Assembly: GCA_963663765.2 (NCBI GenBank)
Contig: CAXXUA010000008.1
Coordinates: forward strand, 52,320-116,319
Direction: 5' to 3'
From: Candidatus Poribacteria bacterium
GTDB taxonomy: Bacteria > Poribacteria > WGA-4E > WGA-3G
DNA length: 64,000 bases
In this document: one piece after another, positions 7,785 to 62,802 of the stretch
Position numbering within the stretch: the stretch's first letter is position 1
How the letters are laid out: each line of letters opens with the position of its first letter
Notes under the pieces: generated by a model
What the model saw: only the letters and a program-made list of their open reading frames with translations
Told to the model about the DNA's origin: nothing
The model's database searches: none
Program-made: the position numbers and the translations under genes

Positions 7785-7985
7785 CAGGACGTACGCAGTT
7801 TTCATGATTTGATGAAGAATTATGACGAAAAGGGTGTAATTTTCAGCATTTTTTCGGTTTCCAGCGCCAAATCAAGAAATCAACGGTATGAATGCCTTTT
7901 GGCATTCCCCGCCTACAAAGCGCCAAATCAACGGTATGAATGCCATTTAGGCATTCCCCGCCTACCGTTGGGTGCGTAAGTCCTA
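7785..7985. mobile_element. CAGGACTTACGCA-ended MITE containing two micro-element insertions
   Basis: Terminal repeats CAGGACGTACGCA / TGCGTAAGTCCTA, 5-bp flanking duplication TATAC. Confidence 0.82.
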
Positions 7986-8060
7986 TATACATTAAACTTA
8001 TTGGAAATCCCAATAACTAAACACAAAATATAATTTGTCCTCACACCCGAATATTGTATA

Positions 8061-8216
8061 ATACCAATTCAAATAAATCTTGTCTCATTAAGGAATTCTA
8101 CTGTTTACTGGCAGGGGGTTACTCTCTTCGGTAGGAGCGACCTCCCGGTCGCGACCGGGAGGTCGCTCCTACCAGATTTCCGCTGATAATGAGACATTAT
8201 CACATGAAAATGGTAT
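8061..8216. mobile_element. ATACCA...TGGTAT-ended MITE with REP doublet
   Basis: Near-identical inverted copies at 58834..59116. Internal GTCTCATTA/TAATGAGAC and GTAGGAGCGACCTCCCGGTCGCGACCGGGAGGTCGCTCCTAC. Confidence 0.8.
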
Positions 8217-8257
8217 AATATAACTATGAAAATTAAAAAATCAACTCTCACATTATG

Positions 8258-8821
8258 CAAGGTTATTCAGTTTTCAATAATTTTGATAGTATTTTGTTAT
8301 ACCGTTAATATTTTGTAATACCCTCTTGTCCATGTCTTTAGTTCCGTAGGAACGATATGTTTATAGAAAATGTTTTCAACCCCAATAGAGTTCCGTAGGA
8401 ACGACATAGAAGAATAGACATATCGTCCCTACGGGACTAAAGACATGGGGAGGGTATTCGTTATCTATACACATATCGTCCCTACCAAATCAACGCCAAA
8501 TGCGCCAAATCAACGGTATGAATGCCATTAAGGCATTCCCCGTATGGCATTTGTCGGGACTAAAGAGCGATATTCAGTTTTCAATAAATTATAGTGAAAT
8601 ATGCAATTAAGTTTACACTTCTTCTGTAGGAGCGATCTCCGAATCGCGACTGAACACCTTGATAGTCGGGAATCGGAGTTCCCTCCTACACCTGAAAGTG
8701 TAAAAATAATTCTATAATTTACTATAAAATTGATGTGTAAAATTCGGTTAGGAAACCGAACCTGGGTATAAACTTTCAGTAAATCTCAATAACAGAAAAC
8801 TCTTAAAACTGAATAACCCCG
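8258..8821. mobile_element. ISAs1-end MITE with nested TAGTG element (8591..8725) and micro-elements
   Basis: Terminal repeats CAAGGTTATTCAGTTTT / AAAACTGAATAACCCCG, flanks CACATTATG/CACATTATA. Inverted homolog at 46992..47472. Confidence 0.82.
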
Positions 8822-9027
8822 CACATTATATTAGAACTATTACATATAGAACAATACCTTCGCCATTTTTGAGTGCTTCAGTTGAATGAGTATATAGTGT
8901 TGATCTACCATTGCTCTGTGATATTGTTAGGATTACATAAATAAAAATAACTTCAGGTTTTCGTTGAAGTATTTTTAATTATCATAGCGTCTAATTTGAC
9001 GATAGAATCTGACAGAATAATTTATAT

Positions 9028-9207
9028 GCACAATCTGGCAGAATGTGCTACAACTGACCGCACAATCTGGCAGAATGTGCTACAACTGACCGCACAATCT
9101 GGCAGAATGTGCTACAACTGACCGCACAATCTGGCAGAATGTGCTACAACTTGACCGCACAATCTGGCAGAATGTGCTACAACTGACCGCACAATCTGGC
9201 AGAATGT
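9028..9207. repeat. Tandem 32-bp REP-like repeat, 5 full copies plus a partial
   Basis: Unit GCACAATCTGGCAGAATGTGCTACAACTGACC. The minus strand reads GTAG plus an imperfect palindrome. No variable spacers. Confidence 0.9.
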
Positions 9208-9287
9208 CTATTATTGGCGAAGATATTGATAGAAATGATATAATATATTCAATAAGATATGATTTAACATAACATTGAGGTGATAAA

Positions 9288-10121
9288 TTGAAACTTGGAG
9301 TATCCACTTATTCCTATTGGCATTTCACTCCTGAACGAGTAGCAATTGAACATGTTATTGAAGAAGCCGCACGGTTGGAACTTGATGGGATTGAAATCTT
9401 ACATCAACAGATGCAATCAGAAGCAACCCCCTATCTACAGAAACTCAAACGTCATGCGTATATCAACGGACTTGACCTTTATGCACTCTCAATTCATCAA
9501 GGGTTCGTGTCACCAGAGGAAAATACACGACAGAAAAACATAAACCATACAATACATTGCATCCGATTGGCACACGAACTCGGTATCCCAGCAATTCGAC
9601 TTAACTCCGGAAGATGGGGGACTATCAAAACATTTAATGAATTAATGAAAACCGAAGGACAAGAACCAACACTGCCTAACCATACGATTGATGAAGCTTT
9701 TGAATGGGTTATTTCTTCAATTGAAGAATGCCTACCAGATGCAGAAAGATATGGAGTCATACTCGGTCTGGAAAATCATTGGGGACTGACCTGCACACCA
9801 GAAGGTGTCAATCGTATTGTCTCCGCCATAGACTCAGATTGGCTAAAGGTGACTATGGATTGTGGTAATTTTCTCTCTGATCCCTATCAAAAACTACAAC
9901 AAATCGCAAATGAAGCTGTTCTTGTCCATGCAAAAACCTATTACGGTGAAGGGGAATGGTACACCCTTGATCTCGATTATGCAAGAATTAGTAAGATTCT
10001 GCAAGAAGCGGGTTTCAACGGATATGTATCTATTGAATTTGAAGGGAAAGAGGACGCACACACTGGCGTGCCAAAAAGTGTTGAGATGTTACGCAATTCC
10101 CTGTTTTATAGTGAAATCTAA
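9288..10121 (+). CDS. Sugar phosphate isomerase/epimerase (xylose-isomerase-like TIM barrel)
   Basis: Motifs DGIEI, GLENH, MDCGN, HAK and YVSIEFEG. TTG start with RBS GAGG. Confidence 0.85.
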   Translation: MKLGVSTYSYWHFTPERVAIEHVIEEAARLELDGIEILHQQMQSEATPYLQKLKRHAYINGLDLYALSIHQGFVSPEENTRQKNINHTIHCIRLAHELGIPAIRLNSGRWGTIKTFNELMKTEGQEPTLPNHTIDEAFEWVISSIEECLPDAERYGVILGLENHWGLTCTPEGVNRIVSAIDSDWLKVTMDCGNFLSDPYQKLQQIANEAVLVHAKTYYGEGEWYTLDLDYARISKILQEAGFNGYVSIEFEGKEDAHTGVPKSVEMLRNSLFYSEI

Positions 10122-10140
10122 AAATATGTACACACTCCCT

Positions 10141-10439
10141 GGTAGGTGTGGTTTCCTAACCGTACCTTAGGCGTCAATTTAAGAAAAAAGTGCTGGTGTT
10201 TCTCTTGTGGGAGGAGTGTTCAACCCCGATATGACAGAAAATGAACATAAAATCGGGGTTGAAAACCCCTCCCACAAGAGGTCAAAATCCTTAAATTGAC
10301 GCTTATGGTGCTGTTTCCTAACCGCACCGAGCATGGTTATGGAATTACCTAATTTATTTTTGATCTTCATTAGGGACGATATGTTTATAACACAAAACCC
10401 AAAATACGTGAAAACAGTTAGTTAACTAGCACAAGTCGT
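10141..10439. mobile_element. Nested MITE cluster including a GCGTCAA...TTGACGC element (10168..10306)
   Basis: Inverted homolog at 50579..50716. Also has ends of other families: CTTCATTAG and GCACAAGTCGT. Confidence 0.7.
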
Positions 10440-11551
10440 TAATTACTCTCCCAAGGGGCTACTTCGGCAACTGCAGCTGGTGCGGGGAAGCGACTTGAAA
10501 CATCTACAGGTTTACCCAAGTCAGATGATTCAATCACACGTTCACATACCTCTAACACATGGCGCGCTTGTGCGCCATTACACCTTGGAAGTCTGTCATT
10601 TCTTATTGCATCAGCAAAGTCTGCAACACCTTTACCCCAATCCAGTCCAGTAAACGCTTTTGAGGGAGAGGGTTCATTTTGCCATCCAGATTGCGGTGTA
10701 AATTTCTTGATTCCGCGCCCATCGTCATGGGCTTGAATTGAAAATGCACCTTTCGTACCGTGAATCTCATAGGGCGGAATTTGGGAGGTTACCGTAAAAC
10801 TATGGTAAATAAGACCTTGTGTTCCATCTGCAAGTGGCACTTCAAACTCAAGCACTGCAAAACCGTGATCTTTTTCTGTGACCTCAAACGAGGTGCCTTG
10901 ACGCGGACCTTGTGTTAGCACACGTTTAGGAACAGCAACCCTCGCAAACCCATGAACCGTTTTCACTGGACCTATCATTGTTGTCATCGCAGTTAATGGA
11001 TACGGAGCAACATCACGAAAAGGTCCCGCATGTTTCAAAAACGCATCCGCATTCGGATGCCAATGTTCCAATGGTCCCCCAAAATTACCTATCGTGGAAA
11101 TCACATCACCAATCTCACCCTCACGTATCCGCTGCCACACATTCTGCTGAACATACCCAAGTATTGCTGATGGCGCACATGCAAGTTTCAATCCCATTGT
11201 ATCTGCTGTCTCTACAAGTTCATTCGCTTCATCTGTCCTAATCGAAATCGGTTTCTCAGAATATACATGCTTCCCCGCTTTCAATGCAGCAAGTGAAACC
11301 GGATAGTGTGAGATATGGATAGTTAGATTTACTATTGCCTCTACATGCGGATCGTTGAATACCGCTTCAAGCGATGAATATACTTTACCACCACCTCTCT
11401 CTGCCAACGCAGAAGCACGTTCTACGTCTTGATCGTAATATCCTATCAACTCAATCTTATCTGGATAGGCTTGACAACGAGGTTGATAACCACCTGATGC
11501 AATCATACCACATCCAACAATCACTGTTCGCAAAGGGCTACTCTTAGACAT
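10439..11551 (-). CDS. Gfo/Idh/MocA family oxidoreductase
   Basis: Motifs IVGCGMIA and GKHVYSEKP. Start moved to ATG 11551, which has RBS GGAGG. Confidence 0.9.
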   Translation of the reverse strand: MSKSSPLRTVIVGCGMIASGGYQPRCQAYPDKIELIGYYDQDVERASALAERGGGKVYSSLEAVFNDPHVEAIVNLTIHISHYPVSLAALKAGKHVYSEKPISIRTDEANELVETADTMGLKLACAPSAILGYVQQNVWQRIREGEIGDVISTIGNFGGPLEHWHPNADAFLKHAGPFRDVAPYPLTAMTTMIGPVKTVHGFARVAVPKRVLTQGPRQGTSFEVTEKDHGFAVLEFEVPLADGTQGLIYHSFTVTSQIPPYEIHGTKGAFSIQAHDDGRGIKKFTPQSGWQNEPSPSKAFTGLDWGKGVADFADAIRNDRLPRCNGAQARHVLEVCERVIESSDLGKPVDVSSRFPAPAAVAEVAPWESN

Positions 11552-11708
11552 TGTAATCCTCCAGTCTTTGATGTCGTTCAATAAATACACATGCATAATA
11601 ACAAAATTACAATCACATGCCAATCAGAAACAACAGCATAACCCTATTTTTGCTTGACATTTCAATCATAATCATTGTAAAATTGATAACACAAGGATAG
11701 GTGACTAC

Positions 11709-12107
11709 ATGAGAAAAATATATACCATACTTACATTGACAGTTCTTACTGTAATGCTCATGTTTATTGGGTGTGCCTCTCACGACACAGCCAAAATACA
11801 AGCATATAATCAGTTTGCTATAAAAACGGCCCAAGTTGGGTTGTGGAATGAAGCAATTTTTCGATGGAAACAGATCATATCTATTGACCCAGATAACGCT
11901 GCAGCACATAACAACCTCGGTGTTGCTTATGAGGCAAAGGGCAATATCCAAGAAGCAGAAGCAGCCTACCAACGGGCAACAGAACTTGAACCTAACAGCA
12001 AATACTTCCGAATCAACTATCGCAGATGCCGACTACACATTCGCAGAAGTGGTACTGAAGGTAAAGAAAATATTCTTGAAACTACTGAACAACAAGTAGA
12101 AGAATAA
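11709..12107 (+). CDS. Tetratricopeptide-repeat lipoprotein
   Basis: Lipobox FIGC and TPR DPDNAAAHNNLGVAYEAKG. Confidence 0.85.
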   Translation: MRKIYTILTLTVLTVMLMFIGCASHDTAKIQAYNQFAIKTAQVGLWNEAIFRWKQIISIDPDNAAAHNNLGVAYEAKGNIQEAEAAYQRATELEPNSKYFRINYRRCRLHIRRSGTEGKENILETTEQQVEE

Positions 12108-12123
12108 ATTAGGAACTAACCTT

Positions 12124-12900
12124 ATGTTGAAAAAACAACACTTCCCGTTTTCACAGACACTTCACAATGTTTCTCAAATAACGATTAAGTTAATACCATC
12201 CTTTATCATCGTGCTGTTTACATTGACTCTATGCTCCTGTGGAAAAAAGTTTGCACGTGTCCCTATAAACATTAAAGTTCAATCCGAAATTGATATAAAT
12301 ACATACTCAAATTTCGCAGTGTTACCTTTTGTTATCGACAAAAACACAAAGAAATTAGATGAACTCCCTACTGATATAGGACCTGAGATCGCGCAAATAC
12401 TCAGAAGTGTTTTAGGCAGACAAAAACATTTTGATGTCGTTAACAAGCAAGAAACAGAACGAATTATGACAGGTGAAAAGATTGAAGATGATTGGCTTAC
12501 AAATACAGAACGGTTGAGTGAGTTAGGAGAATACTTTGAGGTGAAAGGTGTGATCGTCGGAAGTTACCGATTTTATACTGATACGCGGCCAAGACGGTAT
12601 TACGGTGAACGCTATTCACCACAACAACAACGTTATGTTATGGATTATCAGGATTATGTGCAGAAAACTTATCTGCTTGCGTTACGTGTCATGATTATTG
12701 ATGTTGATACCCAGAAAATTATCTGGGACGAATTATATCAACAACGTTCCGCTGAAGCACACAATATCGGTTCTTTCGTCTTTTCGCAGATGGCTCCTCA
12801 GCAAACCACTATGCGTGAACTTAGCAAACGCGCTCTTACCGATTTTGCAAGACAAATCTCACCACACTACGAACAGGAAGACCGATTCCTGATGAGGTAA
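12124..12900 (+). CDS. Lipoprotein, CsgG/TolB-N/LpoB-like fold
   Basis: Lipobox LCSC, FAVLPF, F.VV, VKGVIVG and MIIDVDTQKIIW. Confidence 0.6.
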   Translation: MLKKQHFPFSQTLHNVSQITIKLIPSFIIVLFTLTLCSCGKKFARVPINIKVQSEIDINTYSNFAVLPFVIDKNTKKLDELPTDIGPEIAQILRSVLGRQKHFDVVNKQETERIMTGEKIEDDWLTNTERLSELGEYFEVKGVIVGSYRFYTDTRPRRYYGERYSPQQQRYVMDYQDYVQKTYLLALRVMIIDVDTQKIIWDELYQQRSAEAHNIGSFVFSQMAPQQTTMRELSKRALTDFARQISPHYEQEDRFLMR

Positions 12901-12972
12901 AATACAGAAAATAATTACACGCGAAATACTGAACAATAATTGTAATCATACAGTTCACCCAGAGGAAAACCG

Positions 12973-15885: not shown

Positions 15886-16011
15886 TTAAGACATACGCTT
15901 ACAAAACGGTAAGCACGTTTTGTAAGCGCGCCTACCGTGTAGGTATCAGGAATCATAGATTACACAATTAGGAATTTGCAATTCATGCAATGAAAAATAA
16001 CACACCGAACA

Positions 16012-16196
16012 CAGAGATATTCAGTTTTAAGAGTTTTCTGTTATTGAGATGGACTGAAAGTTAATACCCAGATTCGGTTTCCTAACCGAACTTTATACAT
16101 CAATTTTAGATTATTGAAACATGAACAAGATGGTATCACATAAAATTAACGACATAGCAATATATTATCAAAAATATCGAAAACTGAATAACCATC
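16012..16196. mobile_element. Degenerate ISAs1-end MITE
   Basis: CAGAGATATTCAGTTTT...AAAACTGAATAACC with flanks CACCGAACA/CACCGTACA. Confidence 0.72.
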
Positions 16197-16275
16197 CACC
16201 GTACAAAAATATATATCTATTATTTTCAGTTTACTGTATAATGGACATTATGGATTAAAAAAAGAAGGAGTCAAT

Positions 16276-24943: not shown

Positions 24944-25151
24944 TTGTGCCTCTGTATTATGGTAAATTTTGGAATTAATTACACACTTTCACAGGTAGGA
25001 GCGACCTCCTGGTCGCAACCGTATGGAGACCATGTATCAAAACAGTCGCGACCGGCAAATCAACGGTATGAATGCCTTGGGCGAATACGCGTTTGGTATT
25101 CGCCATGATTCCCCGGGTCGCTCCTACCAAAGAAAAGAAAAGGATAGGATA

Positions 25152-25764
25152 ACGACTTGTGCCAGTTAACCCATTGTTTTCAAAGTTTTTACATATATTA
25201 GATTTATAATGCACACATATCGTCCCTACGGGACTAAAGCGGATGTACTATGACGTATTTCTATAAACATATCGTCCCTACGGGACTAAATGGTTTTCTT
25301 GCTATACATTTATTGTATGTGTCCATTGATGATCTACTACTTAAACAGATGACTACTGGGTTCTTCAGCATTGAACTTTTATTTTATGCTAAAATTAATT
25401 GCCGAAAGAACCACTAAAGAGGATGTACTATGACGTATTTCTATAAACATATCGTCCCTACGGGACTAAAGCGGATGTACTATGACGTATTTCTATAAAC
25501 ATATCGTCCCTACGGGACTAAAGCGGATGTACTATGACGTATTTCTATAAACATATCGTTCCTACGGGACTAAAGCGGATGTACTATGACGTATTTCTAT
25601 AAACATATCGTCCCTACGGGACTGAAGAGGATGTACTATGACGTATTTCTATAAACATATCGTCCCTACGGGACTGAAGATCGTTTCAAACTATGAAGGA
25701 CACCTGCAAAACGCCATGCTTTTGTGAAACAATGATTAACATATAGTTATTTAACACAACTCGT
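25152..25764. mobile_element. ACGAC...CTCGT-ended MITE with internal ~52-bp tandem repeats and a nested 123-bp MITE (25291..25413)
   Basis: 7-bp duplication TAGGATA. Repeat unit GCGGATGTACTATGACGTATTTCTATAAACATATCGTCCCTACGGGACTAAA. The nested element TGGTT...AACCA is flanked by a CTAAA duplication. Inverted homolog at 61844..62136. Confidence 0.85.
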
Positions 25765-28893: not shown

Positions 28894-28894
28894 T

Positions 28895-35873: not shown

Positions 35874-36134
35874 CAGGACTTACGCAGTTTTCATGATTTG
35901 ATGAAAATTATGACGAAAATGGTGTAATTTTCAGCATTTTTTCGGTTTCCAGCGCCAAATCAAGAAATCAACGGTATGAATGCCTTTTGGCATTCGCTGG
36001 GTATGAATGCCTTTTGGCATTCCCCGCCTACAAAGCGCCAAATCAAGTAATCAACGGTATGAATACCTTATGGTATTCCCGGGGTATGAATGCCTTTTGG
36101 CATTCCCCGCCTTCCGTTGGGTGCGTAAGTCCTG
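35874..36134. mobile_element. CAGGACTTACGCA-ended MITE with four micro-element hairpins
   Basis: Perfect terminal repeats CAGGACTTACGCA/TGCGTAAGTCCTG and 5-bp duplication GGTTA. Confidence 0.88.
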
Positions 36135-40397: not shown

Positions 40398-40853
40398 ATA
40401 CCATTTCTATTATAGTGAAATATACAATTAAGTTTACACGTTTTCTGTAGGAGCGATCTCCGAATCGCGACTGAATGCCTTGATAGTCGGGAATCGGAGT
40501 TCCCTCCTACACCATCGCGACTGAACGCCTTGATAGTCGGGAATCGGAGTTCCCTCCTACACCATCGCGACTGAACGTCTTGATAGTCGGGAATCGGAGT
40601 TCCCTCCTACACCTGAAAGTGTAAAAATAATTCTAAAATCTACTATAATACATGTCTCATTAAGTAGTTGCACTGATTTTGCGGGTTGTAGGCCGACTTT
40701 ACGGTAGGAGCGACCTCCCGGTCACGACCCGGTGAATGCCAAAAGGCATTCATACCGTTGATTCGGAGGTCTCTCCTACCATATCTCCTCTGCTAATGAG
40801 ACATTGATTTTTGTAATGATTTTCAATTGATTAGCAAGTGACAAATACGGTAT
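40398..40853. mobile_element. ATACCA-type MITE hosting a TAGTG element (40411..40647) with a triplicated REP arm and a micro-element
   Basis: Three copies of TCGCGACTGAAxGxCTTGATAGTCGGGAATCGGAGTTCCCTCCTACACC. Inner GTCTCATTA/TAATGAGAC. Confidence 0.78.
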
Positions 40854-46586: not shown

Positions 46587-47486
46587 AGAGACATTCAATT
46601 GTCACTTGCGTTTCTTATGGGAGGGGTTTGTAACCCCGATTTCTTCGGTAGGAGCGACCATGAGAATGCCTAAATGGCATTCATACCGTTGATTTACTGG
46701 TCGTAAAAATCTCCAAATAATTAAGAAAATTTTGACAAGTGAATGTCTCTATAGGATTGTAATGCTATTAATAGTGAATTTTGAAAACAGTGTATAATTG
46801 TTTTCATAATTCACTTCAGTCCCGTAGGGACGAATGTTTATAGAACAGGACTTACACAGTTTCTCTTAAAGTCCACCTGATAAGGGAAGGGTTCCCATAG
46901 CAATAGCGTATGGGAGGGTGTGGGTTAATAACTAAAATAACGACATTTATACCCCCTTAAGCCTCCCTTATCAAGGAGGAATGCCGTAAGTCAGGGTTAT
47001 TCAGTTTTAAGAGTTTTCTGTTCTTGAGATTTACTGAAAGTTAATACCCAGGTTCGGTTTCCTAACCGAATTTTACGCATCACTTTTAATTTATTGAAAA
47101 CTGAATATTGCTCTTTAGGCCCGTAGGGACGATATGTGTATTCTTCTATGTCGTTCCTACGGAACTCTATTGGGGTTGAAAACATTTTCTATAAACATAT
47201 CGTTCCTACGGAACTCTATTGGGGTTGAAAACATTTTCTATAAACATATCGTTCCTACGGAACTAAAGACATGGACAAGATGGTATTACAAAATATTAAC
47301 GGTATAACAAATAGGACTTACGCAGTTTTCATGATCCAATCAAGAATTAAGACGAAAACGATGTAATTTTCAGCATTTTTTAGGTTTCCGGCGCGCTTAC
47401 AAAGCACGCCTACCGTTGGGTGCGTAAGTCCTGACAAAATACTATCATAAATATTGAAAACTGAATAACCTTTGCCGTAAGTCTTG
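46587..47486. mobile_element. Multi-layer MITE nest (46587..46750; from 46846; 46992..47472; 47312..47433)
   Basis: An AGAGACATTCA-ended element. An ISAs1-end MITE with 10-bp duplication TGCCGTAAGT sits in the right end of a CAGGACTTAC element. A further CAGGAC-type MITE with ACAAA duplication lies inside it. Confidence 0.82.
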
Positions 47487-49548: not shown

Positions 49549-50768
49549 GGGTGTGTAAAGTTTTTGTAGAAACCCTGACATTATAGTGGATTTTAGAATT
49601 ATTTTTACACTTTCAGGGGTAGGAGGGAACTCCGATTCTCGACTATCAAGGCGTCCAGTCGCGATTCGGAGATCGAAATCAACGGTATGAATGCCTATTG
49701 GCATTCCCCGCCTACAGAACAAGTGTAAACTTAATTGTATATTTCACTATAGTTCCGTAGGAACGATATGTTTATAGATAAATGTTTTCAACCCCAATAG
49801 AGTTCCGTAGGAACGACATAGAAGAATAAACATATCGTCCCTATGGGACTAAAGAACTGAGAGGGTATTCGTTTTCTATAAACATATCGTCCCTAATGAA
49901 GATTAATTTATTAATTCGGTAATAAAATATTTCTCCAACGGTTGGCGTGCTTTGTAAGCGCGCCCCCGATAGTAGGCGTGCTTTGTAAGCGCGCCATCCC
50001 CGCACTCACCTGCTGGCGTACCTCACTGCAGGCGTGCTTTGTAAGCGCGCCATCCCCGCACTCACCTGCTGGCATACCCCCACTGCAGGCGTGCTTTGTA
50101 AGCGCGCTCCATACTCCCTAAAAACTGCAGGCGTGCTTTGTAAGCGCGCTCCATACTCCCAAAACTGCAGGCGTGCTTTGTAAGCGCGCTCCATACTTCC
50201 AAATACTGCAGGCGTGCTTTGTAAGCGCGCCATCCCCGCACTCACCTGCAGACACCCCCCACTGCAGGCGTGCTTTGTAAGCGCGCTCCATACTCCCTAA
50301 AAACTTCAGGCGTGCTTTGTAAGCGCGCTCCATACTCCCTAAAAACTTCAGGCGTGCTTTGTAAGCGCGCCATCCCCGCACTCACCTGCTGGCATACCCC
50401 ACTGCAGGCGTGCTTTGTAAGCGCGCCATCCCCGCACTCACCTGCTGGCGTACCCCACTGCAGACGTGCTTTGTAAGCGCACCCCCGATAGTAGGCGTGC
50501 TTTGTAAGCGCACCCCCGATGGTAGACATGCTTTGTAAGCGAACCCCCGATGGTAGACGTGCTTTGTAAGCGCACCCCATAAGCGTCAACTTAAGGATTT
50601 TCACCTCTTGTGGGAGTTTTTTTCAACCCCGATTTTATGTTCATCTTCTGTCATATCGAGGTTGAAAAAAACTCCCACAAGAGAAACACCAACACTTTTT
50701 CATAAATTGACGTCTATGGGGCGGGGAGACCCCGCCCCTACGCACAGCAACAAAAACTTTACACACCC
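49549..50768. mobile_element. 1.2-kb composite GGGTGTGTAAA-ended non-coding element
   Basis: Terminal repeats with exact 9-bp duplication GTTTTAAAG (49540..49548, 50769..50777). Contains TAGTG (49582..49751) and GCGTCAA (50579..50716) elements and a REP array. Confidence 0.88.
49940..50580. repeat. Array of 15 copies of palindromic GGCGTGCTTTGTAAGCGCGC separated by three recurring linker types
   Basis: Copies counted by eye. Linkers CCCGATAGT-type, CATCCCCGCACTCACCTGCTGGC-type and TCCATACTCCCTAAAAACT-type recur. Confidence 0.9.
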
Positions 50769-52332: not shown

Positions 52333-53367
52333 ATGAAAAATGCAGCTGTTATTGGTTACGGTTATGCTGGACGGGCATTCCACTCATATCTGATAGGTTT
52401 TGCTGATGGGTTAAACCTATACGGTATAGCAACACGGAATGAAGAACGTCGTGCCGCCGCACGCAAAGCATATCCTAACGCACAAATATATCAGACAATT
52501 GATGAGGTCGTTGCAGACGATAAAGTTGATCTCGTGGTCTTAGCAACGCCACACGATACGCACGCTGAACTCGCAATTACGGCAATGGATGCCGGCAAGA
52601 ATGTTGTCACGGATAAGATTATCGCAATGAATACTGCCGAAGCAGATGCAATGATCGCCGCAGGTAAACGCAATAACGTTCTATTTAGTGTGTTTCATAA
52701 TCGCCGTTGGGACTGGGATTATATCACTGTCAAAAAGGTTATCGCTGACGGACTGCTCGGAACACCCTACCTTTTTCAAGTCGCAATCATGCGTTATGGT
52801 GCACCGGGTGGATGGAGAGGCGTCAAAAGCCAAAGTGGAGGAATCCTGTTCGATTGGCCCGCACACTTCGTTGATCAAGCACTGCAATTCGTACAAGCAC
52901 CCGTAGCTTCTGTTTATTGTGATATACACTACAACACAAAATGGGACACTGATATTGGAAACTACGCAAACTGCATCATAAAGTTTGAAAACGATGTACG
53001 CTATCAAATTGAGATTGGCAACCTGTCTAAAGCAGAAAAACCGCGTTGGTACGTGGTCGGTGATGAAGGCGGTTTGATCAAATACGGGTTAGACCCTCAA
53101 GAAGGACCGATGCGAGAAGGCAATATTGATGCTGCCGAACAAGACCCAAAAAACTATGCAAAAGTCTGGACAGAGGCAAACGGAGAAAAACGAGAACTCG
53201 TTATAGAAAGTGTCCGTAGCACTTGGAAATCCTACTACCAAAACATATCTGATGTCCTAAATAAAGGTGCAGAACTCGTTGTCAAACCAGAAGAAATGAG
53301 AAAAGTTATGCAAGTCTATGATGCAGCAATGCTATCTGCGGAGACGGGTGAAACAGTAAAATTCTAA
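52333..53367 (+). CDS. Gfo/Idh/MocA oxidoreductase (IolW/YdgJ-like)
   Basis: Motifs IGYGYAGRAFH, VFHNRRWD and GGILFDW. Confidence 0.88.
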   Translation: MKNAAVIGYGYAGRAFHSYLIGFADGLNLYGIATRNEERRAAARKAYPNAQIYQTIDEVVADDKVDLVVLATPHDTHAELAITAMDAGKNVVTDKIIAMNTAEADAMIAAGKRNNVLFSVFHNRRWDWDYITVKKVIADGLLGTPYLFQVAIMRYGAPGGWRGVKSQSGGILFDWPAHFVDQALQFVQAPVASVYCDIHYNTKWDTDIGNYANCIIKFENDVRYQIEIGNLSKAEKPRWYVVGDEGGLIKYGLDPQEGPMREGNIDAAEQDPKNYAKVWTEANGEKRELVIESVRSTWKSYYQNISDVLNKGAELVVKPEEMRKVMQVYDAAMLSAETGETVKF

Positions 53368-53373
53368 TTCAAG

Positions 53374-56121: not shown

Positions 56122-56146
56122 ATGCACAAATCTTTATCCTAAATAT

Positions 56147-57461
56147 CAGGGTTATTTAGTTTTAGGAGTTTTGGTTGTTTTTTATCACAATCGTTAATAT
56201 TTTTGGATATGCAGATATAGCGTGATTTATCGCGCTATATCTGCTATACTTCACCTAAAAAATCTTACCTTTGAGGTGAAAAATGCCAGAGAAAAACTCT
56301 CGACACTTGTTAGATAGATTAGCAGAAATCCAAGACCCGCGCAACAATAAAGGAAAACGACACCCATTGAAATCAATCATCGGACTTAACATTATTGGTT
56401 TTATGACTGGACATAAAGGATATACATCCATCGCAACTTGGGCCCGAACCCAACCAGACCTCGCAAGAACACTCGGTTTTACACATAAGAAAACACCTTG
56501 TCCCGCAACAATACATAATGTTCTAAAAGATTTAGATGCTGATGCTGTTGAAAAGACATTTACAGACTGGGTAGAAGACGTTTGTCAAAGTCGACCTGAT
56601 TTAGAAGGTTGTCTTGACGCAGTCGCTATAGACGGTAAAACGATGCGTGCCAGTAAGAAAAGTGGTGCGACAATAAGCCATTTACTCTCTGTTGTGTCTC
56701 ATGAGTTAGGCGTCACACTTACACAAAAAGGTGTCAGTGATAAAACCAACGAAATACCGATCTCAACAGAGATCCTCAAAAACTTTGATGTGAGTGGTAA
56801 AGTCATCACAACAGACGCACTTTTGACACAGCGACCATTCTGCCACGCCATCATAGAGGGTAATGGAGACTATGTGCTCCCTGTCAAAAAGAACCAACCG
56901 GACCTTTACGATGAGATCCAAAAACTCTTTCAAGACGTTCCAGACACGCTTTCTGATAACACACCACATCCTAAATTGGGAGCCCCTATTTACACTCACG
57001 AGACTTCTGAAAAATCACATGGTAGAATAGAGACAAGGTGTTTGAAAGCAAGCACAAGTCTCAACGCATATCTGGATTGGCCAGGTATAGCACAAGTGTT
57101 CCAATATCGTTATACTTACAAAAATACGAAAACAGGAGAAGAAAAAACCAAAATCCATTATGGTATTACAAGTCTGACACCCGAAGAAACTTCTGCCCAA
57201 CGTTTACTTGAGCTACGCCGTGGGCATTGGTCAATAGAGAACAAGTCGCATTGGATGCGTGATACACAACTTGGAGAAGACGCATCGTCTGTCCGATGCG
57301 GTGCTATTCCACAAATCATGGCTGCTTTGCGAAATACAGCATTAGCAGTGTTGCGATTTGCTGGGATAACGCGTATAGCAGATGAGATAAAATACTTAGC
57401 TTCAAAACCTAAACTCGCAGTTAACTTGATAACTGAGAGTTTTTAAAACTAAATAACCCTG
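56147..57461 (+). mobile_element. Complete ISAs1-family insertion sequence
   Basis: 18-bp terminal repeats CAGGGTTATTTAGTTTTA / TAAAACTAAATAACCCTG and a 9-bp duplication CCTAAATAT. Confidence 0.93.
56283..57446 (+). CDS. ISAs1 family DDE transposase
   Basis: DPR...RHPL, AIDGKT, KTNEI, TDAL, VKKNQ, HGRIETR, RGHWSIEN..HW.RD and ED. Confidence 0.95.
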   Translation: MPEKNSRHLLDRLAEIQDPRNNKGKRHPLKSIIGLNIIGFMTGHKGYTSIATWARTQPDLARTLGFTHKKTPCPATIHNVLKDLDADAVEKTFTDWVEDVCQSRPDLEGCLDAVAIDGKTMRASKKSGATISHLLSVVSHELGVTLTQKGVSDKTNEIPISTEILKNFDVSGKVITTDALLTQRPFCHAIIEGNGDYVLPVKKNQPDLYDEIQKLFQDVPDTLSDNTPHPKLGAPIYTHETSEKSHGRIETRCLKASTSLNAYLDWPGIAQVFQYRYTYKNTKTGEEKTKIHYGITSLTPEETSAQRLLELRRGHWSIENKSHWMRDTQLGEDASSVRCGAIPQIMAALRNTALAVLRFAGITRIADEIKYLASKPKLAVNLITESF

Positions 57462-57488
57462 CCTAAATATAATGATTAATCAATTTAC

Positions 57489-57601
57489 TGTTCAAATTGT
57501 GAACACCACTGATTAAATTGTGACAGTTCAAGGAAATACTAAGATATAAACCCAAACATAGTCTACAGATGCAAACTGATTGCATTGGCATTATATTTGC
57601 T
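57489..57601 (+). promoter_or_regulatory. Sigma54 promoter with upstream palindrome
   Basis: TGGCAT-TATAT-TTGCT at 57586..57601, and TGTTCA-AATTG-TGAACA at 57489..57505. Confidence 0.7.
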
Positions 57602-57621
57602 GAGTATATTCTAACAATAAC

Positions 57622-58755
57622 ATGAGGAGAAACAGAATGTATCTAAAAAAACTTACTGCGATGATGTTGATGGTGCTATGCATCAGTCTCTCCGCACAAA
57701 GCGATTCCCATAAAAATCATAAAAAAGAGACAACACAGTATGATGATCTAAACAAACGCGTTATTACAAGCATTGACAAAGGTTTAGAATGGTTGGAAAC
57801 ACAACAAGGCGAAGATGGTTTATTTGCTGATCACCCTGGAATGACTGCACTTGTAATCACAGCATTTTTACGACATCCACAAAAAAAATATTCCGAAGAA
57901 AAACACCCGTTTATTCAGAAGACAATTGACCAACTTATTGCAATGCAACAAGAAAACGGTGCAATCTACGATATAAAGAAACAACCCGCACTACCAAACT
58001 ATACCACTGCTACTACTGTAATGGCACTCGCTTCAACAAGTAATCCGAAAAAGTATGAAAAAGTCATCAAAAAAGCACAAGGATTCCTAAAAAGTCTGCA
58101 AATACAAGATGAGGAAAGTGTATATTATGGTGGCATCGGTTACGGAAGTCGTGAGACCGTAAATGATCTCTCTAACTTAAACTTTGCTTTACAAGCATTG
58201 AAAGAAAGCGGTTCTGATGATGATGAAGTCTGGAAAAAAGCCATTAAGTTCTTGGAACGCACACAGAACAGAAGCGAAAGTAATGACCAAAAATGGGCTG
58301 GTAACGATGGCGGATTCATATACGCACCAGATGGTGAAAGCAAAGCAGGCAATGACGAAAATGGTTCACCCCGTTCCTATGCCAGCATGACTTATGCAGG
58401 TCTATTGAGTTTCATTTACGCTAATGTTGACAAAGATGATGAACGCGTAAAATCTGCAGTGCAGTGGATAGAAAAACATTTCACCGTTGAAGAAAACTAT
58501 GGTATGGGCGCACAAGGCCTCTATTACAACTATCACACTATGGCAAAAGCATTGCGGTTATACGGTAAAGATACAATTACAGATGCAAAAGGTGTCACAC
58601 ACGACTGGTACAAAGAACTTGCTGAAAAACTGATTGAAGAGCAGAAACCAGATGGATATTGGGTTAATGATGGAAGCAAGCGTTGGATGGAATCACTCCC
58701 AGTGTTAGCAACAAGTTATGCAATCCTCTCACTTGATACTGCCTATCCCAAGTAA
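57622..58755 (+). CDS. Exported prenyltransferase/squalene-oxidase repeat protein
   Basis: Signal peptide and QW-like repeats (WLETQQGEDG, QQENG, GGIGY, DGGFIY, QKPDGYW). Confidence 0.85.
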   Translation: MRRNRMYLKKLTAMMLMVLCISLSAQSDSHKNHKKETTQYDDLNKRVITSIDKGLEWLETQQGEDGLFADHPGMTALVITAFLRHPQKKYSEEKHPFIQKTIDQLIAMQQENGAIYDIKKQPALPNYTTATTVMALASTSNPKKYEKVIKKAQGFLKSLQIQDEESVYYGGIGYGSRETVNDLSNLNFALQALKESGSDDDEVWKKAIKFLERTQNRSESNDQKWAGNDGGFIYAPDGESKAGNDENGSPRSYASMTYAGLLSFIYANVDKDDERVKSAVQWIEKHFTVEENYGMGAQGLYYNYHTMAKALRLYGKDTITDAKGVTHDWYKELAEKLIEEQKPDGYWVNDGSKRWMESLPVLATSYAILSLDTAYPK

Positions 58756-58779
58756 GAATAAGTAAAGTTTTCCTCCTAT

Positions 58780-58812
58780 AAGGCGGAATCCCACATCCGC
58801 CTTTATTTTTTT
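58780..58812 (+). terminator. Rho-independent terminator
   Basis: AAGGCGGA-ATCCCACA-TCCGCCTT followed by TATTTTTTT. Confidence 0.75.
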
Positions 58813-58833
58813 CAAATTTACTTGATTATAGTA

Positions 58834-59116
58834 ATACCATTTTCATGTGATAATGTCTCATTAGCAGCGGAAATCTGGTAGGAGCGACCTCCCGGTCGCT
58901 CCTACCGAAGAGAGTAACCCCCTGCCAGTAACCAGTAGAATTCCTTAATGAGACAAGATTTATTTGAATTGGTATGATAATGTCTCATAAGCAGCGGAAA
59001 TCTGGTAGGAGCGACCTCCCGGTCGCGACCGTGAGGTCGCTCCTACCGAAGAGAGTAACCCCCTGCCAGTAACCAGTAGAATTTCTTAATGAGACAAGAT
59101 TTATTTGAATTGGTAT
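58834..59116. mobile_element. Tandem ATACCA...TGGTAT MITE copies
   Basis: Two ~140-bp units, both inverted homologs of 8061..8216. Confidence 0.82.
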
Positions 59117-59208
59117 AATGGCATAAATATCTTCCACTAAACGAAACCTCCTTTAAGACGTTTAACACGTGTTTTTTGTGCAATGTCGCAAAAACGTCAG
59201 GAGGTTTT

Positions 59209-60510
59209 ATGAGTCTAATCGATGGGCTATCAATCGGTATAGCCTCAATACGTGCAAACAAAATGCGTTCTATGTTAACAATGTTGGGAATTATAATCGG
59301 TATCGCAGCTGTACTCGCAATGATAGCAATCGGAGATGGTGCAAAAGAGGTAGTACTTCAAGACGCAGAAAAACTTGGTGGGGCAAACCAATTCACTTTA
59401 TATCGTAGATCATCTACCAGAATTGGAAGGCATAAAGTACCAATTCGCACTAAGGAATATCTCAACTATGATGATGTCATCGCAATAGAAACTGAATGTC
59501 CATCTGTCAACTATGTAACGCCAAGGATACGGGATTGGAAAGGCTTGTTATTCCAAGGTCCAGGTGGCACGCAAACCCGTGCAGGATATAACGGCGTTGA
59601 TAAAACCTTTAAAGACGCAATGGATTGGAAGTTACAAGACGGTAGATTCATCACAGATGAGGATGTAAAAAATGCAGCACAAATCTGTATACTTGGGGAT
59701 GAAGTCGCAACAGACCTATTCGGAAACATCTCTCCACTGGGACAAGAGGTAAAAATCGCAAGACGGGTAAAATACTACGACCATCGTGGAAAAAGACGTA
59801 ACAAGCTTTTAACAGATCGATTTACGGTTGTTGGAAAAATGACACCAAGAGGAAGAAGTCTACGTTTCGGTTGGAGTTTTGATAGTATGGTCTTCTTCCC
59901 TATCACCACCACGCAGGAACGTTTTACCGGTGACGACAAGATTCAGGAAATCGTCGTATATGCACATTCCATTCACGACGTACCTACTGCGGTTTCTGAA
60001 GTAAGACAGGTTATCAGACAACGTCACAAAGGGGAAGATAAATTCGTTAAAATATATGAGATGCGAAAAGGTATCAGGCATCTGGAAAGAATAAGCAAAA
60101 TGATAAAAATCGCTCTTGGCAGCATTGCAGGTTTTTCGCTTCTTGTTGGTGGAATCGGCATCATGAATATGATGTTAGTCGCTGTAACGGAACGCACACG
60201 TGAGATCGGTCTACGAAAAGCCATGGGAGCAAAACCACTGGACATCATGCTACAATTCCTCATTGAGTCAATAACCATGTGTGCAATAGGAGGAATTATC
60301 GGAATCTGTTTAGGTGTATTTGCAAGTGAAGGAATGTCATTTCTTGCAGTCAAAATCGCAAAAATCGTTCCTGAATGGCCAGCAGTTGTTTCAGCACAAT
60401 GGGTACTGATTTCCTGTCTGTTTTCCGCAGTGATCGGCATTTCATTCGGATTATATCCAGCCATAAAAGCATCTATGTTATCCCCAATAGAAGCTCTTCG
60501 CAAAGAATAA
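59209..60510 (+). CDS. MacB/FtsX-type ABC transporter permease
   Basis: RSMLTMLGIIIGI, VGGIGIMNMMLVAVTERTREIGLRKAMGA and PIEALR. Start at ATG 59209 with RBS AGGAGG. Confidence 0.92.
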   Translation: MSLIDGLSIGIASIRANKMRSMLTMLGIIIGIAAVLAMIAIGDGAKEVVLQDAEKLGGANQFTLYRRSSTRIGRHKVPIRTKEYLNYDDVIAIETECPSVNYVTPRIRDWKGLLFQGPGGTQTRAGYNGVDKTFKDAMDWKLQDGRFITDEDVKNAAQICILGDEVATDLFGNISPLGQEVKIARRVKYYDHRGKRRNKLLTDRFTVVGKMTPRGRSLRFGWSFDSMVFFPITTTQERFTGDDKIQEIVVYAHSIHDVPTAVSEVRQVIRQRHKGEDKFVKIYEMRKGIRHLERISKMIKIALGSIAGFSLLVGGIGIMNMMLVAVTERTREIGLRKAMGAKPLDIMLQFLIESITMCAIGGIIGICLGVFASEGMSFLAVKIAKIVPEWPAVVSAQWVLISCLFSAVIGISFGLYPAIKASMLSPIEALRKE

Positions 60511-60515
60511 ATTCC

Positions 60516-61256
60516 TTACCCTGGCATTTCGTTATATGTTACTCCATCTAGTTCTCTACCATTTTTAGATTTGCGTACTCCACCCCACTGTTTAAAGAAA
60601 AAGTCTACACCGTTTTTCTTACATTGGTCTTTGATGTCAATAACCCATTCTTTTTTCATCACACGTGAACCGGGACCAGATTCACCTCCAACAATTACCC
60701 AATCTATTCCATCCAAATTTAAGTCTGAAAGCTGTCCAATTAGTGGTTCAAGTGACAGAAATTTTATTTTTGCTTCTGTCTGATGTAGGTCATCAATCCT
60801 ATCTATCACTCGGTCGTCCTCAACACTTACACCCATCCATACATTTGGTGGCCACGGTAATTTTGTGCTGTATTTCAATAGTTGTGTTGCACGCTTTGTT
60901 AAGATTTGGAATTTATGCCAATACGCCTTTTCCATTACAGAGAAAACTGCTTGAATAAAATCAAATTCTATTTTTTCGTGAAACAGATCACTCATGGAAT
61001 TAACGAAAATACGGCGCGGTTTTTTCCATTTTAATGGCTCGTTAAGGAGTGTCCATACTGGACGTACCTCGCGCGTCCATTGTGGACCGTTTTTGGTGTT
61101 TTCCGCAAAACCTTCGAATGCCATCCCTTCCCCAGAGAACCTTGCTGCAATACGTTCAGCATAGCAGAATCGGCATCCATCTGAAACGCGGGTACATCCG
61201 CGTACAGGATTCCATGTAGATTCAGTCCACTCAATTTTTGATGAAATGGTTGCCAT
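60516..61256 (-). CDS. DUF5131 / phage Gp37-Gp68 family three-Cys-motif protein
   Basis: IEWTESTWNP, GCTRVSDGCRFCYA, FVNSMSDLFH, ILTKR, SLEPL, WVIVGGESG and FFFKQWGG. Confidence 0.93.
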   Translation of the reverse strand: MATISSKIEWTESTWNPVRGCTRVSDGCRFCYAERIAARFSGEGMAFEGFAENTKNGPQWTREVRPVWTLLNEPLKWKKPRRIFVNSMSDLFHEKIEFDFIQAVFSVMEKAYWHKFQILTKRATQLLKYSTKLPWPPNVWMGVSVEDDRVIDRIDDLHQTEAKIKFLSLEPLIGQLSDLNLDGIDWVIVGGESGPGSRVMKKEWVIDIKDQCKKNGVDFFFKQWGGVRKSKNGRELDGVTYNEMPG

Positions 61257-61287
61257 GATTATAGTTCCTTTAAAGGGTTAAATTCAT

Positions 61288-61476
61288 TTAATATTTACTT
61301 CTTTGACTAAACTGTTTCAAAATTATACCCTGTGCAATTTTAACCGCAATCGGAGCACCTTTGGGATTACCAGCTGCAAAACACAGAAGGTACAATGGAA
61401 CATTTTTTGAATTTCGTAATGGAAGAGGATTTGTCGCCACTTGACTAAAGATATCTTGTAATCGTTTAATAAAGTA
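61288..61476 (-). pseudogene. C-terminal remnant of three-Cys-motif partner protein (TcmP-like), cut by IS
   Basis: Manual translation YFIKRLQDIFSQVATNPLPLRNSKNVPLYLLCFAAGNPKGAPIAVKIAQGIILKQFSQRSKY*. It begins at the IS end and lies directly upstream of the DUF5131 gene. Confidence 0.72.
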
Positions 61477-61550
61477 TTAGACATTATATAAATTTAAATT
61501 ACAGTTGATTTCTGGCATAATAAAGAAAATTATGCTTTGGAGATTAACTC

Positions 61551-62802
61551 ATGAACAAATATGATGAAATCAATGATGATCCGGGTAAGTTCCAAAAACT
61601 AACGGGTTTTACGACTGAAGAAATTTTGGCACTTCTTCCGATTTTTACGACACATTTTTTAGCGTTTGTCTCTACAAAAACACTTGATGGTCAAGAACGA
61701 AAAAAAACGGCTTTATACCACTTACAAAAATAGTCGTTTGTCAAATATGGAAGATAAACTTCTGTTTATTTTGATTTATCTACGACACGCATGGACCCAA
61801 GATGCTCATGGTATGTTCTTTGATATGTCTCAACCTGAGACAAACGAGTTGTGCTAAATAACTATATGTTAATCATTGTTTCACATAAGCATGACGTTTT
61901 GCAGGTGTCCTTCATAGTTTGAAACGATCTTCAGTCCCGACAAATGCCATACGCGCATTTGGCGTTGATTTGGTAGGGACGATATGTTTATAGAAAAACG
62001 TCATAGTACATCCTCTTTAGTCCCGACAAATGCCATACGCGCATTTGGCGTTGATTTGGTAGGGACGATATGTGCACATTATAAACCTAATATATGTAAA
62101 AACTTTGAAAACAATTGGTTAACTGGCACAAGTCGTGAGACAAATAAATGGATACACCTACTTTCACCGATATTAGACCAGGCATTAGATGAACTCGGTG
62201 AGTTGCCATCTCGTGAGACAACTCCTGATACTTTTGAAAAAGAGACAGCTGTTGAAAGTGACACACCGGCACCCGAACATTTTTTCCAAGATTGCACAGA
62301 GCGTCCGATACAGCGTCCGAAAGACCAAGAAGCACAGAAGGACTATTATAGTGGCAAAAAGAAACAACATACTGTAAAGAATAATCTGCTTATTAATGCT
62401 GCGTGCAGGGTATTGGTATTGTCTCCTACTTACAAAGGCAGCAGGCATGATAAACGTATTGCCGATGAAACAATATCTTTTTTGCCAAGTGGTAGTTATT
62501 TATACCAAGATTCCGGTTTTTTAGGTTTTAATCCTGCTGGTATTACTGTTGTCCAACAGAAAAAGAAACCCAAAGGTGGTGAACTGACAGCAGCTGAAAA
62601 AGCAAGAAACCGGGAAATATCGTCTATCCGTATCCGTGTAGAACATGTGATTAGTAGTGTCAAAAGATACCGCATAGTCAAAGACAAGTTGCGCAATTGG
62701 AGGAAACAAGGGTTCAGCGATTTAGTCATGAAAATCTGTTGTGGATTACATAACTTTCGTCTAAACTTCAGACCTTGGTGTTATGACAAACATTTCGATT
62801 AA
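61551..62802 (+). pseudogene. Transposase pseudogene (frameshift in A8 run near 61700, MITE insertion 61844..62136)
   Basis: Fragments FQKLTG, EDKLLFILIYL..SQPETN and KWIHLL..DCTERPIQRP..YSGKKKQHTVK..HD..DSGF..RIRVEH. Confidence 0.85.
61844..62136. mobile_element. ACGAG...GTCGT MITE inserted in the transposase
   Basis: 7-bp duplication GAGACAA. Removing it restores SQPETNKWIH. Inverted homolog of 25152..25764. Confidence 0.9.

Follow-up and report, generated by a model that had tools for sequence, protein, structure and literature searches.

Mobile DNA shorter than about 50 nucleotides (nt) is, to our knowledge, almost unexplored, the one described case being the small dispersed repeats (SDRs) of Nostoc, which have been left without a mechanism since 2008. 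In that year, Elhai et al. reportedly described SDR4, SDR5 and SDR6 of Nostoc punctiforme and its relatives as repeats with hairpin potential that nest in other repeats, and in which families with unrelated cores share a conserved non-palindromic flank. Two groups of larger elements are also relevant, the IS200/IS605 elements with their derivatives lacking open reading frames (palindrome-associated transposable elements, PATEs), which are moved on single-stranded DNA by the Y1 HUH transposase TnpA, and IS91, ISCR and Helitron, which are Y2 HUH rolling-circle elements, kilobases long, that encode their own enzyme. In the passages of PMC4390886 devoted to it, SDR5 is stated to enter HIP1 at an exact point, after base 3 and before base 4 (GCG/ATCGC, the slash marking here and below the point of insertion), and the small dispersed repeats of Nostoc are also mentioned in parts of PMC3116915 and PMC2884548. 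Here, we have analysed a stretch of 64,000 nt (the window) from a Candidatus Poribacteria bacterium (assembly GCA_963663765.2, contig CAXXUA010000008.1, positions 52,320 to 116,319), in which a first-pass annotation, made from the letters of the window, had pointed to two families of micro-elements of around 35 nt, X and Y, built of a common head and a hairpin and inserted inside palindromic repeats and inside each other.

The genome of the window (G000; 6.35 Mb in 15 contigs, G+C content around 41%, 97.8% complete) belongs to a sponge symbiont, and the public sequencing runs that contain the window stretch include a sponge metagenome. It was compared with other poribacterial genomes, designated by G-numbers, and its contigs by C-numbers (C2, C3, C4, C5 and C13). 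Judged from these sequences, the units are modular and have very probably been inserted independently into many unrelated repeats and into their own copies, next to a CG dinucleotide. We lean, with some reserve, towards regarding them as non-autonomous, very small mobile DNA elements of one family of Candidatus Poribacteria, moved in the way proposed below, and at 34-36 nt they count among the smallest DNAs observed so far that seem to be mobile.

The units resemble the Nostoc repeats in their size of tens of bases, in their apparent mobility, in the precision of their insertion and in having no known mover, and the entry of X into hairpin loops at GCG/CG is like that of SDR5 at GCG/ATCGC, as far as the passages on SDR5 go. 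They differ in that the host belongs to Poribacteria and not to the heterocyst-forming cyanobacteria, the comparison being one of descriptions, and in their target, which here is CG(GG/CC), whereas HIP1 (GCGATCGC) has only 29 sites in the 6.35 Mb of G000. Since the hosts are Poribacteria and HIP1 is scarce, the Nostoc repeats are to be taken as an analogue in another phylum, in such a way that the parallel drawn by the first-pass annotation holds for size and precise insertion and fails for membership of the same family, the relatives found being metagenome-assembled genomes (MAGs) of Poribacteria. The units can be described as micro-elements akin to SDRs from a different phylum, clearly modular in design and with a target that is defined. 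A full-text literature search, with most subscription journals outside its scope, returned no description of miniature inverted-repeat transposable elements (MITEs), repetitive extragenic palindromes (REPs) or units of this type in Poribacteria.

Each unit starts with a conserved, single-stranded head of core sequence AAATCAACG, which usually reads CCAAATCAACG and is sometimes extended by AAATCAAG repeats, and continues directly into a hairpin of 7-8 bp with a loop that is frequently GCGTATG or GCGTTTG. The exact head CCAAATCAACG occurs 428 times in G000, versus 7 occurrences of its reversed control, and around 128 copies of the long-head variant CCAAATCAAGAAATCAACG were found. The hairpins that follow the exact head belong to class X (GTATGAATGC, n = 207), class Y (CCAAATGCGC, n = 121), an X form with a longer stem (GTATGAATCA, n = 27), class W (TCAGAAGCGC, n = 12) and class Y2 (CCGAATGCGC, n = 12). 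The proposal of two families was thus an undercount, as at least six hairpin types exist (X, X with a GCGTATG loop, Y, Y2, W and long-stem forms). X hairpins number 549 in G000, 412 of them preceded by ..ATCAACGG. Calculated for single-stranded DNA, fold energies were -6.9 kcal/mol for X (z -3.6), -5.4 for Y (z -0.9) and -12.6 for Y with a nested X (z -2.9).

The conservation of head and hairpin was studied in an alignment of 31 distinct Y-class elements, 30 from poribacterial MAG loci and one from the window. Elements were admitted by a parser if their stem reached 6 bp or more with a single mismatch at most; chance matches in other phyla were dropped in this way, and one more chance match was removed by hand. 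Head positions 3-11 are invariant in this alignment, and the 8-bp stem pairs in 93.3% of the cells, versus 25-42% when the partner columns are slid. Compensatory double changes were detected in 7 of the 8 stem pairs, with a score that was reached by none of 500 shuffles. What is conserved is the structure of the hairpin, the stem sequence being free to change while pairing is kept. This covariation supports the idea of interchangeable hairpins behind a shared head, and the modular composition proposed at first stands; the head of 11 nt needs a correction, as its first two bases vary between contexts. Rare, long and perfect palindromes that mirror the whole head and stem (CCAAATCAACGGTATGAAT...ATTCATACCGTTGATTTGG) were also observed at C4:107365-107413, C4:1165444-1165512 and C5:581180-581228, one of the three between GTAGGT and ACCTAC; they may be hairpin-templated extension products of X.

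The existence of empty counterparts was investigated throughout G000. For this, the 12 bases before each head were joined to 12 bases further on, and the resulting 24-mer was sought elsewhere in the genome as an exact match. Such an empty paralogous junction was found for 389 of the 780 head hits (those with at most one mismatch or with the long head). The pieces most commonly excised in this way were the 36-nt X, the 34-nt Y, W and Y2, X variants of 35 and 43 nt, and a 70-nt Y containing an X; a class of 20 nt among the excised lengths is an artefact of nested heads. The junction atatcgtcccta/cgggactaaaga is filled in 69 cases and empty in 344, and gcttacaaagca/cgcctaccgttg in 27 and 68, respectively. 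The Y loop itself (gcg/cgtatgg, in its 12+12 context) holds an X in 49 copies and is empty in 54. Target bases were neither duplicated nor lost at these hosts, and the lack of target duplication first claimed from the window therefore extends to exact filled and empty junctions of the genome.

The repeats that act as hosts include MITE1 (site GTCCCTA/CGGGAC), hostC (GCGCGCTTACAAAGCACGCCT.., present in more than 1000 copies in G000), MITE-G (TCTGAACCAGGAT..) and REPs tagged with GTAG. In total, units were found in at least ten unrelated repeats, in the hairpin loops of other units and in mixed tandem arrays. At least six host classes harbour the X stem and at least eight the Y stem; every host class holds several hairpin types, and so do single host sites, in such a way that the MITE1 site holds a unit with the CCAGAAGC stem in one MAG and one with CCAAATGC (Y) in G000. 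Such a combinatorial spread of hairpin types over hosts is decisive against simple inheritance, in which units would always keep the same flanks, and the identical 36-mer in unrelated hosts means that deletion from a single ancestral form cannot account for the empty sites. A tandem array of nine units mixes ATTGA, TTTT and ATTTA loops with units of 35 and 36 nt, a heterogeneity that is expected if an intact CG target is hit repeatedly, and not from slippage of one unit. The flanking 24-mers are single-copy for 42 of 360 parsed copies, nearly all of them in recognisable degenerate host repeats, and at least one unit lies in the loop of an apparently unique hairpin (C5, ..ACAGGCACCG/X/CGCCTGT..). 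The assertion that every copy lies within another repeat is thus right for most copies, with this exception.

To define the target, 175 unique contexts of 7+7 nt were collected from G000, which are not to be counted as independent events. No consensus and no shared microhomology were detected in the left flank. On the right, a CG is found within 4 nt after the stem end in 132 of the 175 contexts, 121 of these at 0-1 nt, and the tetranucleotide is CGGG in 71, CGCC in 25 and CGTA in 13 (genome shares among CGNN of 4.4%, 3.7% and 6.6%, respectively). Most of the 43 contexts without CG show a decayed CpG (CA or TG), the head of the next unit or a chance match to the head. In MITE1, 117 heads follow ATCGTCCCTA at a single position and in a single orientation, with no unit at the CG of the other strand, and the entry of X into hairpin loops always takes place at GCG/CGT (51 cases). 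Insertion directly 5' of a CG, as first proposed, is therefore almost always observed, the part that does not hold being MITE-G, whose empty copies lack that CG.

All the copies listed for the window by the first-pass annotation were found within 2 nt of their positions, by reading of the sequence and by a scripted check of coordinates, including the X inside a Y claimed at 8485..8555 and the empty sites that coexist with filled ones in the window as in the rest of the genome (Table 1). The head CCAAATCAACG has five exact matches in the window and nine with at most one mismatch, versus a mean of 1.41 in shuffled windows, none of 100 shuffles reaching nine, and the X hairpin pattern has three matches versus none expected. 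With reading frames of at least 110 aa as reference, no unit lies inside a frame, except for 62027-62059, which overlaps one stop-to-stop frame only.

Table 1. Units and empty target sites in the window (slashes mark insertion points).
Feature	Position	Strand	Length (nt)	Description
X' element	7867-7909	+	43	Long head CCAAATCAAGAAATCAACG and GAATGCC-TTTT-GGCATTC hairpin; between ..TTCCAGCG and CGCCTACA..
X element	7923-7958	+	36	Insertion in hostC, ACAAAGCG/../CGCCTACC; same host empty at 47406/47407
Y element	8485-8554	+	34 after removal of nested X	MITE1 site GTCCCTA/CGGGAC
X element	8505-8540	+	36	Nested in the Y hairpin loop at GCG/CGTATGG
X-type element	25055-25113	+	59	Extended hairpin, top GCGAATAC-GCGTTTG-GTATTCGC; inside a GTAG-tagged REP; followed by CGGGTCGC
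Empty MITE1 target GTCCCTA/CGGGAC (GTCCCTACGGGAC)	25222-25234	+		
Composite, X' first and a headless X hairpin unit second	35955-36024	+	70	
Second composite, X' variant and headless X	36038-36107	+	70	Followed by CGCCTTCC
X, head CCGAATCAACG	40732-40766	-	35	Inside the palindromic REP GGTAGGAG.GACCT..; followed by CGGGTCG
Degenerate X, head GTAAATCAACG	46662-46697	-	36	REP remnant; CG after the unit decayed to ATGG
Empty hostC site GCGCGCTTACAAAGCA/CGCCTACCGTTGGG	47391-47420	+		Junction 47406/47407, ..ACAAAGCA/CGCCTACC..
X, head CGAAATCAACG	49674-49708	+	35	After ..TCGGAGAT, before CGCCTACA
Y element	61940-61973	-	34	MITE1 site GTCCCTA/CGGGACTG
Y element	62026-62059	-	34	Second unit of the MITE1 copy that also holds 61940-61973

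The distribution of the units was studied with patterns of different length. A 22-mer of X, allowing one mismatch, was present in the 18 genomes of the same genus that were searched (1-154 copies; 248 in G000; control 0). None of 12 genomes drawn from three further families of the same order had it. The pattern of head plus loop was detected in 36 of 39 genomes of the genus, in the single genome searched of g12, in 4 of 65 of g13 and in none of the 6 of g9-g11, and a shorter core head plus loop, sought in a draw across the phylum, in 52 of 99 genomes of the family (control 0) and in none of 51 genomes from eight other poribacterial families. When one genome per species was scanned for the core head plus hairpin loop, at least 98 loci were obtained; among the 80 matches listed, 67 are MAGs of Candidatus Poribacteria, many with a host repeat shared with G000, and the matches from other phyla have no 3' stem and appear to be due to chance. 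Viral contigs contained no X match and five matches to the Y-class pattern, all without the CC head and the 3' stem and thus attributable to chance. As far as these genomes represent the group, the units are confined to one poribacterial family. Within it, the copy number differs around 100-fold between species, and X and Y vary independently, G001 having 106 X and no Y-class unit and G003 one X and 2-3 Y-class units. The dominant stems are CCAGAAGC in G043, CAGCATGC in G040 and CAGAATGC in G042, and such species-specific stems look like lineage-specific bursts. G000, G058, G040 and G017 rank as genomes of high activity, and G003, G041 and G057 as nearly empty ones.

As for the mechanism, a trans-acting protein would recognise head and hairpin on single-stranded DNA and would join the unit next to a CG. 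Joining would proceed as with HUH nuclease-ligases, either by the "peel and paste" of IS200/IS605 or RAYT (REP-associated tyrosine transposase) or by the rolling circle of IS91 and Helitron. The complementary strand reads 5'-CCCG^hairpin..CGTTGATTTGG^, so that a conserved flank would lie 5' of the precise end, the far end being less precise. Insertion would occur in a fixed orientation, 5' of the CG and without target duplication, and would leave the target intact, and this would account for tandem arrays of mixed composition as well as for the recurrent nesting of units in REPs, in MITEs and in the loops of copies already present. We favour a single-strand HUH-like protein because of the lack of inverted repeats and of duplication, the conservation of the hairpin in structure only, the one-sided flank and the single precise end, and because of the hairpin-forming targets and the strand asymmetry of the repeats at the scale of replichores. 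The units share with IS200/IS605 and PATEs the absence of terminal inverted repeats and target duplication, a hairpin, a short conserved flank at one end and, for the repeats that surround them, a chromosome-scale strand bias. With IS91, ISCR and Helitron they have in common the lack of inverted repeats and duplication, a fixed short host sequence, a hairpin near one end and one precise and one imprecise end, those elements being kilobases long and coding for an enzyme and the units being of around 35 nt. The hyperparasitic minimal mobile unit of the first-pass annotation is retained in its modular design and in its insertion into repeats and other units, and we only infer an enzyme that recognises hairpin DNA.

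The observations that weigh against mobility of this kind concern the way in which copies multiplied, the sharpness of the unit ends and the enzymes at hand. With respect to the first, the exact heads follow a few dominant 5' contexts, CGTCCCTA (118), ACAAAGCA (113) and CAAATGCG (51), which account for 282 of the 428, so that a large share of the copies may have arisen by hitch-hiking on host repeats. The units on C5 also show a strand bias (+41/-133) that is identical to that of empty host repeats and is therefore uninformative about the units themselves; X orientation in REP hosts can be followed in few cases (+2/-4 on C5). The evidence for insertion is comparative. Between G000 and its closest relatives G043 and G016 (syntenic matches with 82-90% identity), the intergenic blocks are not orthologous at the level of repeats, one MITE type being shared in opposite orientation and other blocks being missing. 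Assembled contigs of public runs show 36-nt "skips" at 7922-7959 and 8504-8541, with a shorter side of only 21-28 nt, which paralogous empty copies could also yield, and they are thus evidence neither way.

These data could be accommodated if a few old insertions or rearrangements had made the composites and if amplification of host repeats (MITE1, hostC, REPs), gene conversion and unequal recombination had then made the copies and the pattern of filled and empty sites, the units being immobile now. The three contexts, the strand bias shared with empty hosts, the lack of a demonstrated orthologous or population polymorphism and of a mover among the candidates searched, and the turnover of intergenic blocks as a whole (the 1.5-kb block of the window corresponds to around 25 bp in G016) are all in line with such a history. 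We nevertheless hold it to be improbable as a full account, as the same 34-36-nt units reside in at least ten unrelated hosts, one host site can carry several types of hairpin, and species differ in the dominant stem at one and the same MITE1 position, CCAGAAGC in one MAG versus CCAAATGC in G000. The heterogeneity of the tandem arrays and the copy in an apparently unique hairpin loop point in the same direction, and the covariation of the stems implies selection on the unit itself.

With respect to the unit ends, MITE-G departs from the general pattern. Its empty copies read ..TCAGGAT.. in 172 of 172 cases, and in all 15 filled copies with an identified end the unit is followed by ..CGGGAT... 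The filled copies begin with TC/AC-AAATCAA (where the slash separates alternatives) instead of CCAAATCAA, without the CC of the head, in such a way that the exact insert, AATCAA..CCCCG at TCA/GGAT, is the usual unit shifted by 3 nt that brings its own CG. Boundaries are also imprecise in 103 of the 549 X hairpins, which are headless and are placed after an earlier X as ..GGCATTCCC-CGGG-TATGAATGCC... The shift in MITE-G, the variable first two bases of the head and the headless units show that the unit is delimited less sharply at its head than at the CG. The MITE-G shift fits a process that is exact at one end and loose at the other, or the copying of a donor at microhomologies, and not a strictly precise cut-and-join.

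The second of these options would dispense with a dedicated transposase: a nascent strand, stalled with the help of hairpins, would switch to a donor at microhomologies of 2-4 nt, copy head and hairpin, and return. The gain of the donor CG together with the loss of the head CC(A) in MITE-G, the variable or missing heads, the long palindromes that carry a copy of the head on their other arm, and the lack of a correlated enzyme, including a reverse transcriptase in G000, are what such copying would leave behind. Against it stand the strict use of one orientation and position in MITE1 and in hairpin loops (GCG/CGT, 51 cases) and the left junctions without shared microhomology. The non-palindromic head of 9-11 nt has, moreover, been kept in dozens of species whose stems have drifted, which points to the recognition of a specific sequence, and on this basis we assign copying without a transposase a low probability.

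Candidates for the mover among the enzymes of G000 also failed to match the units. The first-pass annotation had suggested a search for the same head at the ends of an autonomous element, and no element bounded by inverted heads exists in G000. Six matches to Y1_Tnp were found, four of them belonging to a 1753-bp IS200/IS605 copy. The ends of this resident element are unlike the head, no head lies in the 1.5-kb flanks of the tnpA loci (L001-L004), and IS200/IS605 TnpA, present in 18 of 39 genomes of g1 and 39 of 65 of g13, does not track the units; G001 (97% complete, 4 contigs) carries 106 X and no Y1_Tnp match. The early hint at IS200/IS605 has thus found no support in the resident family. 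The geometry differs too, as IS200/IS605 elements have a hairpin at each end and the units a single one, with the conserved flank abutting the hairpin foot and no room in between for the guide tetranucleotide of IS608 type. As the distribution of the known Y1 genes does not follow that of the units and the geometry is unlike IS608, we rate an HUH-like mechanism as a tentative option that falls somewhat short of an even chance.

One of the six matches is a RAYT-like gene (C4:621598-622074, locus L005; 42 bits), and its position among REP arrays is the classic REPIN-RAYT arrangement. Long arrays of GTAG-tagged REPs (GTAGGAGGGAACTCCGATTCCCGAC and similar ones) border the gene on either side, with neither X nor Y in that position, and its relatives, found in 78 of 112 genomes of the family (24 of 39 in g1 and 50 of 65 in g13), do not track the units either. 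The units are similar to the REP/REPIN-RAYT system (PMC3116915; for GTAG-tagged REPs, PMC3733652) in being short intergenic hairpin repeats in hundreds of copies, and are unlike it in lacking the GTAG tag and in not flanking a RAYT, REPs serving instead as their hosts. Taken across the 112 family genomes compared, neither RAYT nor TnpA nor the IS630-like transposase treated next tracks the units.

A striking likeness to the head was found at the ends of an IS630-like element of 1163 bp (C3:72859-74021; DDE_3 and helix-turn-helix domains; four further copies) and of an 84-nt MITE flanked by TA, both of which carry at their ends CCAAATTAACG, a sequence that agrees with the head in 10 of 11 bases. 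This MITE carries a GTAG REP core, has copies, for example, at C4:48833 and C13:431318 and none in the window, and in a few copies carries CCAAATCAACG itself. A cluster of three heads on C4 that had been considered as a promoter with a small-RNA array actually consists of such TA-flanked MITE copies. A common origin of the IS630-like ends and the head, or a shared binding factor, is possible. Use of the head as a terminal repeat by a DDE transposase of the IS630 family, which these ends would favour together with the TA duplication and the CCAAATCAACG copies of the MITE, is in our opinion very improbable. The units, in contrast to DDE MITEs, have no terminal inverted repeats, that is, no second terminal repeat, and no TA duplication. 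The other DDE_3 elements of G000 have ends that differ from the head, and no head was found beside DDE_3 genes in this genome. The IS630-like transposase, present in 17 of 39 genomes of g1, has 19 copies in G003, with its single X and 2-3 Y-class units, and was not found in G016, with around 106 X.

Another mechanism in which one end is less precise is target-primed reverse transcription of a small hairpin RNA, which would leave ends like those of LINEs, with a precise 3' end at the CG, a variable 5' end and the 103 headless X units of 549 as 5'-truncated copies. No reverse transcriptase (RVT_1) was matched in G000, the most copy-rich genome, with a control that matched in 3 of 14 genomes, and no Rfam model reached its gathering score within the window, so that we grant this route hardly any probability, at most that given to the IS630 family. 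The transposase of IS110 (DEDD, PF01548) was not matched in G000 either (control matches in 6 of 14 genomes), and Y2_Tnp (PF04986) had no match in G000 and none in the control genomes.

A bolder version of the proposed mechanism is that the mover is an enzyme of a kind new as a transposase, or a co-opted host enzyme of replication or repair, which would bind the single-stranded head of 9-11 nt plus any hairpin and paste a piece of around 35 nt 5' of a CG. We consider it unlikely, although with notable consequences if true, as the units would then be the smallest sequence-defined mobile DNAs with a modular design of address plus hairpin, and would provide, beside the small dispersed repeats of cyanobacteria, another system amenable to study from which those repeats might be explained. 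The insertion of 35 nt beside a dinucleotide by a new mover would be relevant for the evolution of mobile elements and for genome-writing tools. An abundant, modular system in around 100 sequenced species of one family offers material for phylogenetic profiling of the mover, and head, hairpin and CG provide the basis for designing a minimal biochemical substrate. The units also reshape the intergenic DNA, REPs and MITEs of an uncultured sponge symbiont and break short-read assemblies.

The strand distribution of the host repeats is itself asymmetric. MITE1 (GTCCCTACGGGAC units) has +41/-148 copies on C5, and the counts are +26/-255 for hostC and +79/-15 for the GTAGGAGCGACC REP. On C5, every 200-kb bin is minus-biased whatever the orientation of the genes, and on C4 the sign of the bias changes at around 1 Mb. 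Such an asymmetry suggests a replication-direction-dependent (single-strand) spread of the repeat population as a whole.

A larger element that starts with (T)ATGAAGATTAAT.. inserts into X hairpin loops (for example, C2 (-) 212033 and C5 1056025) and, in 10 copies, into the GTCCCTA/ loop of MITE1; in the window, the region 49890-49930 reads ..GTCCCTA/ATGAAGATTAAT... Its presence in both kinds of loop indicates that hairpin loops are landing sites common to several element types. Host repeats occupy positions 8330-8480, 25190-25260 and 47391-47430 of the window, and positions 7731-9253 form an intergenic block of 1.5 kb made up almost entirely of REPs, MITEs and micro-elements. The genes that flank this block are around 25 bp apart in G016 and 300-600 bp apart in other relatives, and from these differences in gap size it appears that repeats accumulate in particular gaps. 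Finally, an insertion sequence of 1316 bp lies at 56147-57462, with terminal repeats CAGGGTTATTTAGTTTTA and a transposase-like open reading frame of 387 aa; it has around 14 copies in the genome, one of which splits the IS200/IS605 tnpA at locus L004.

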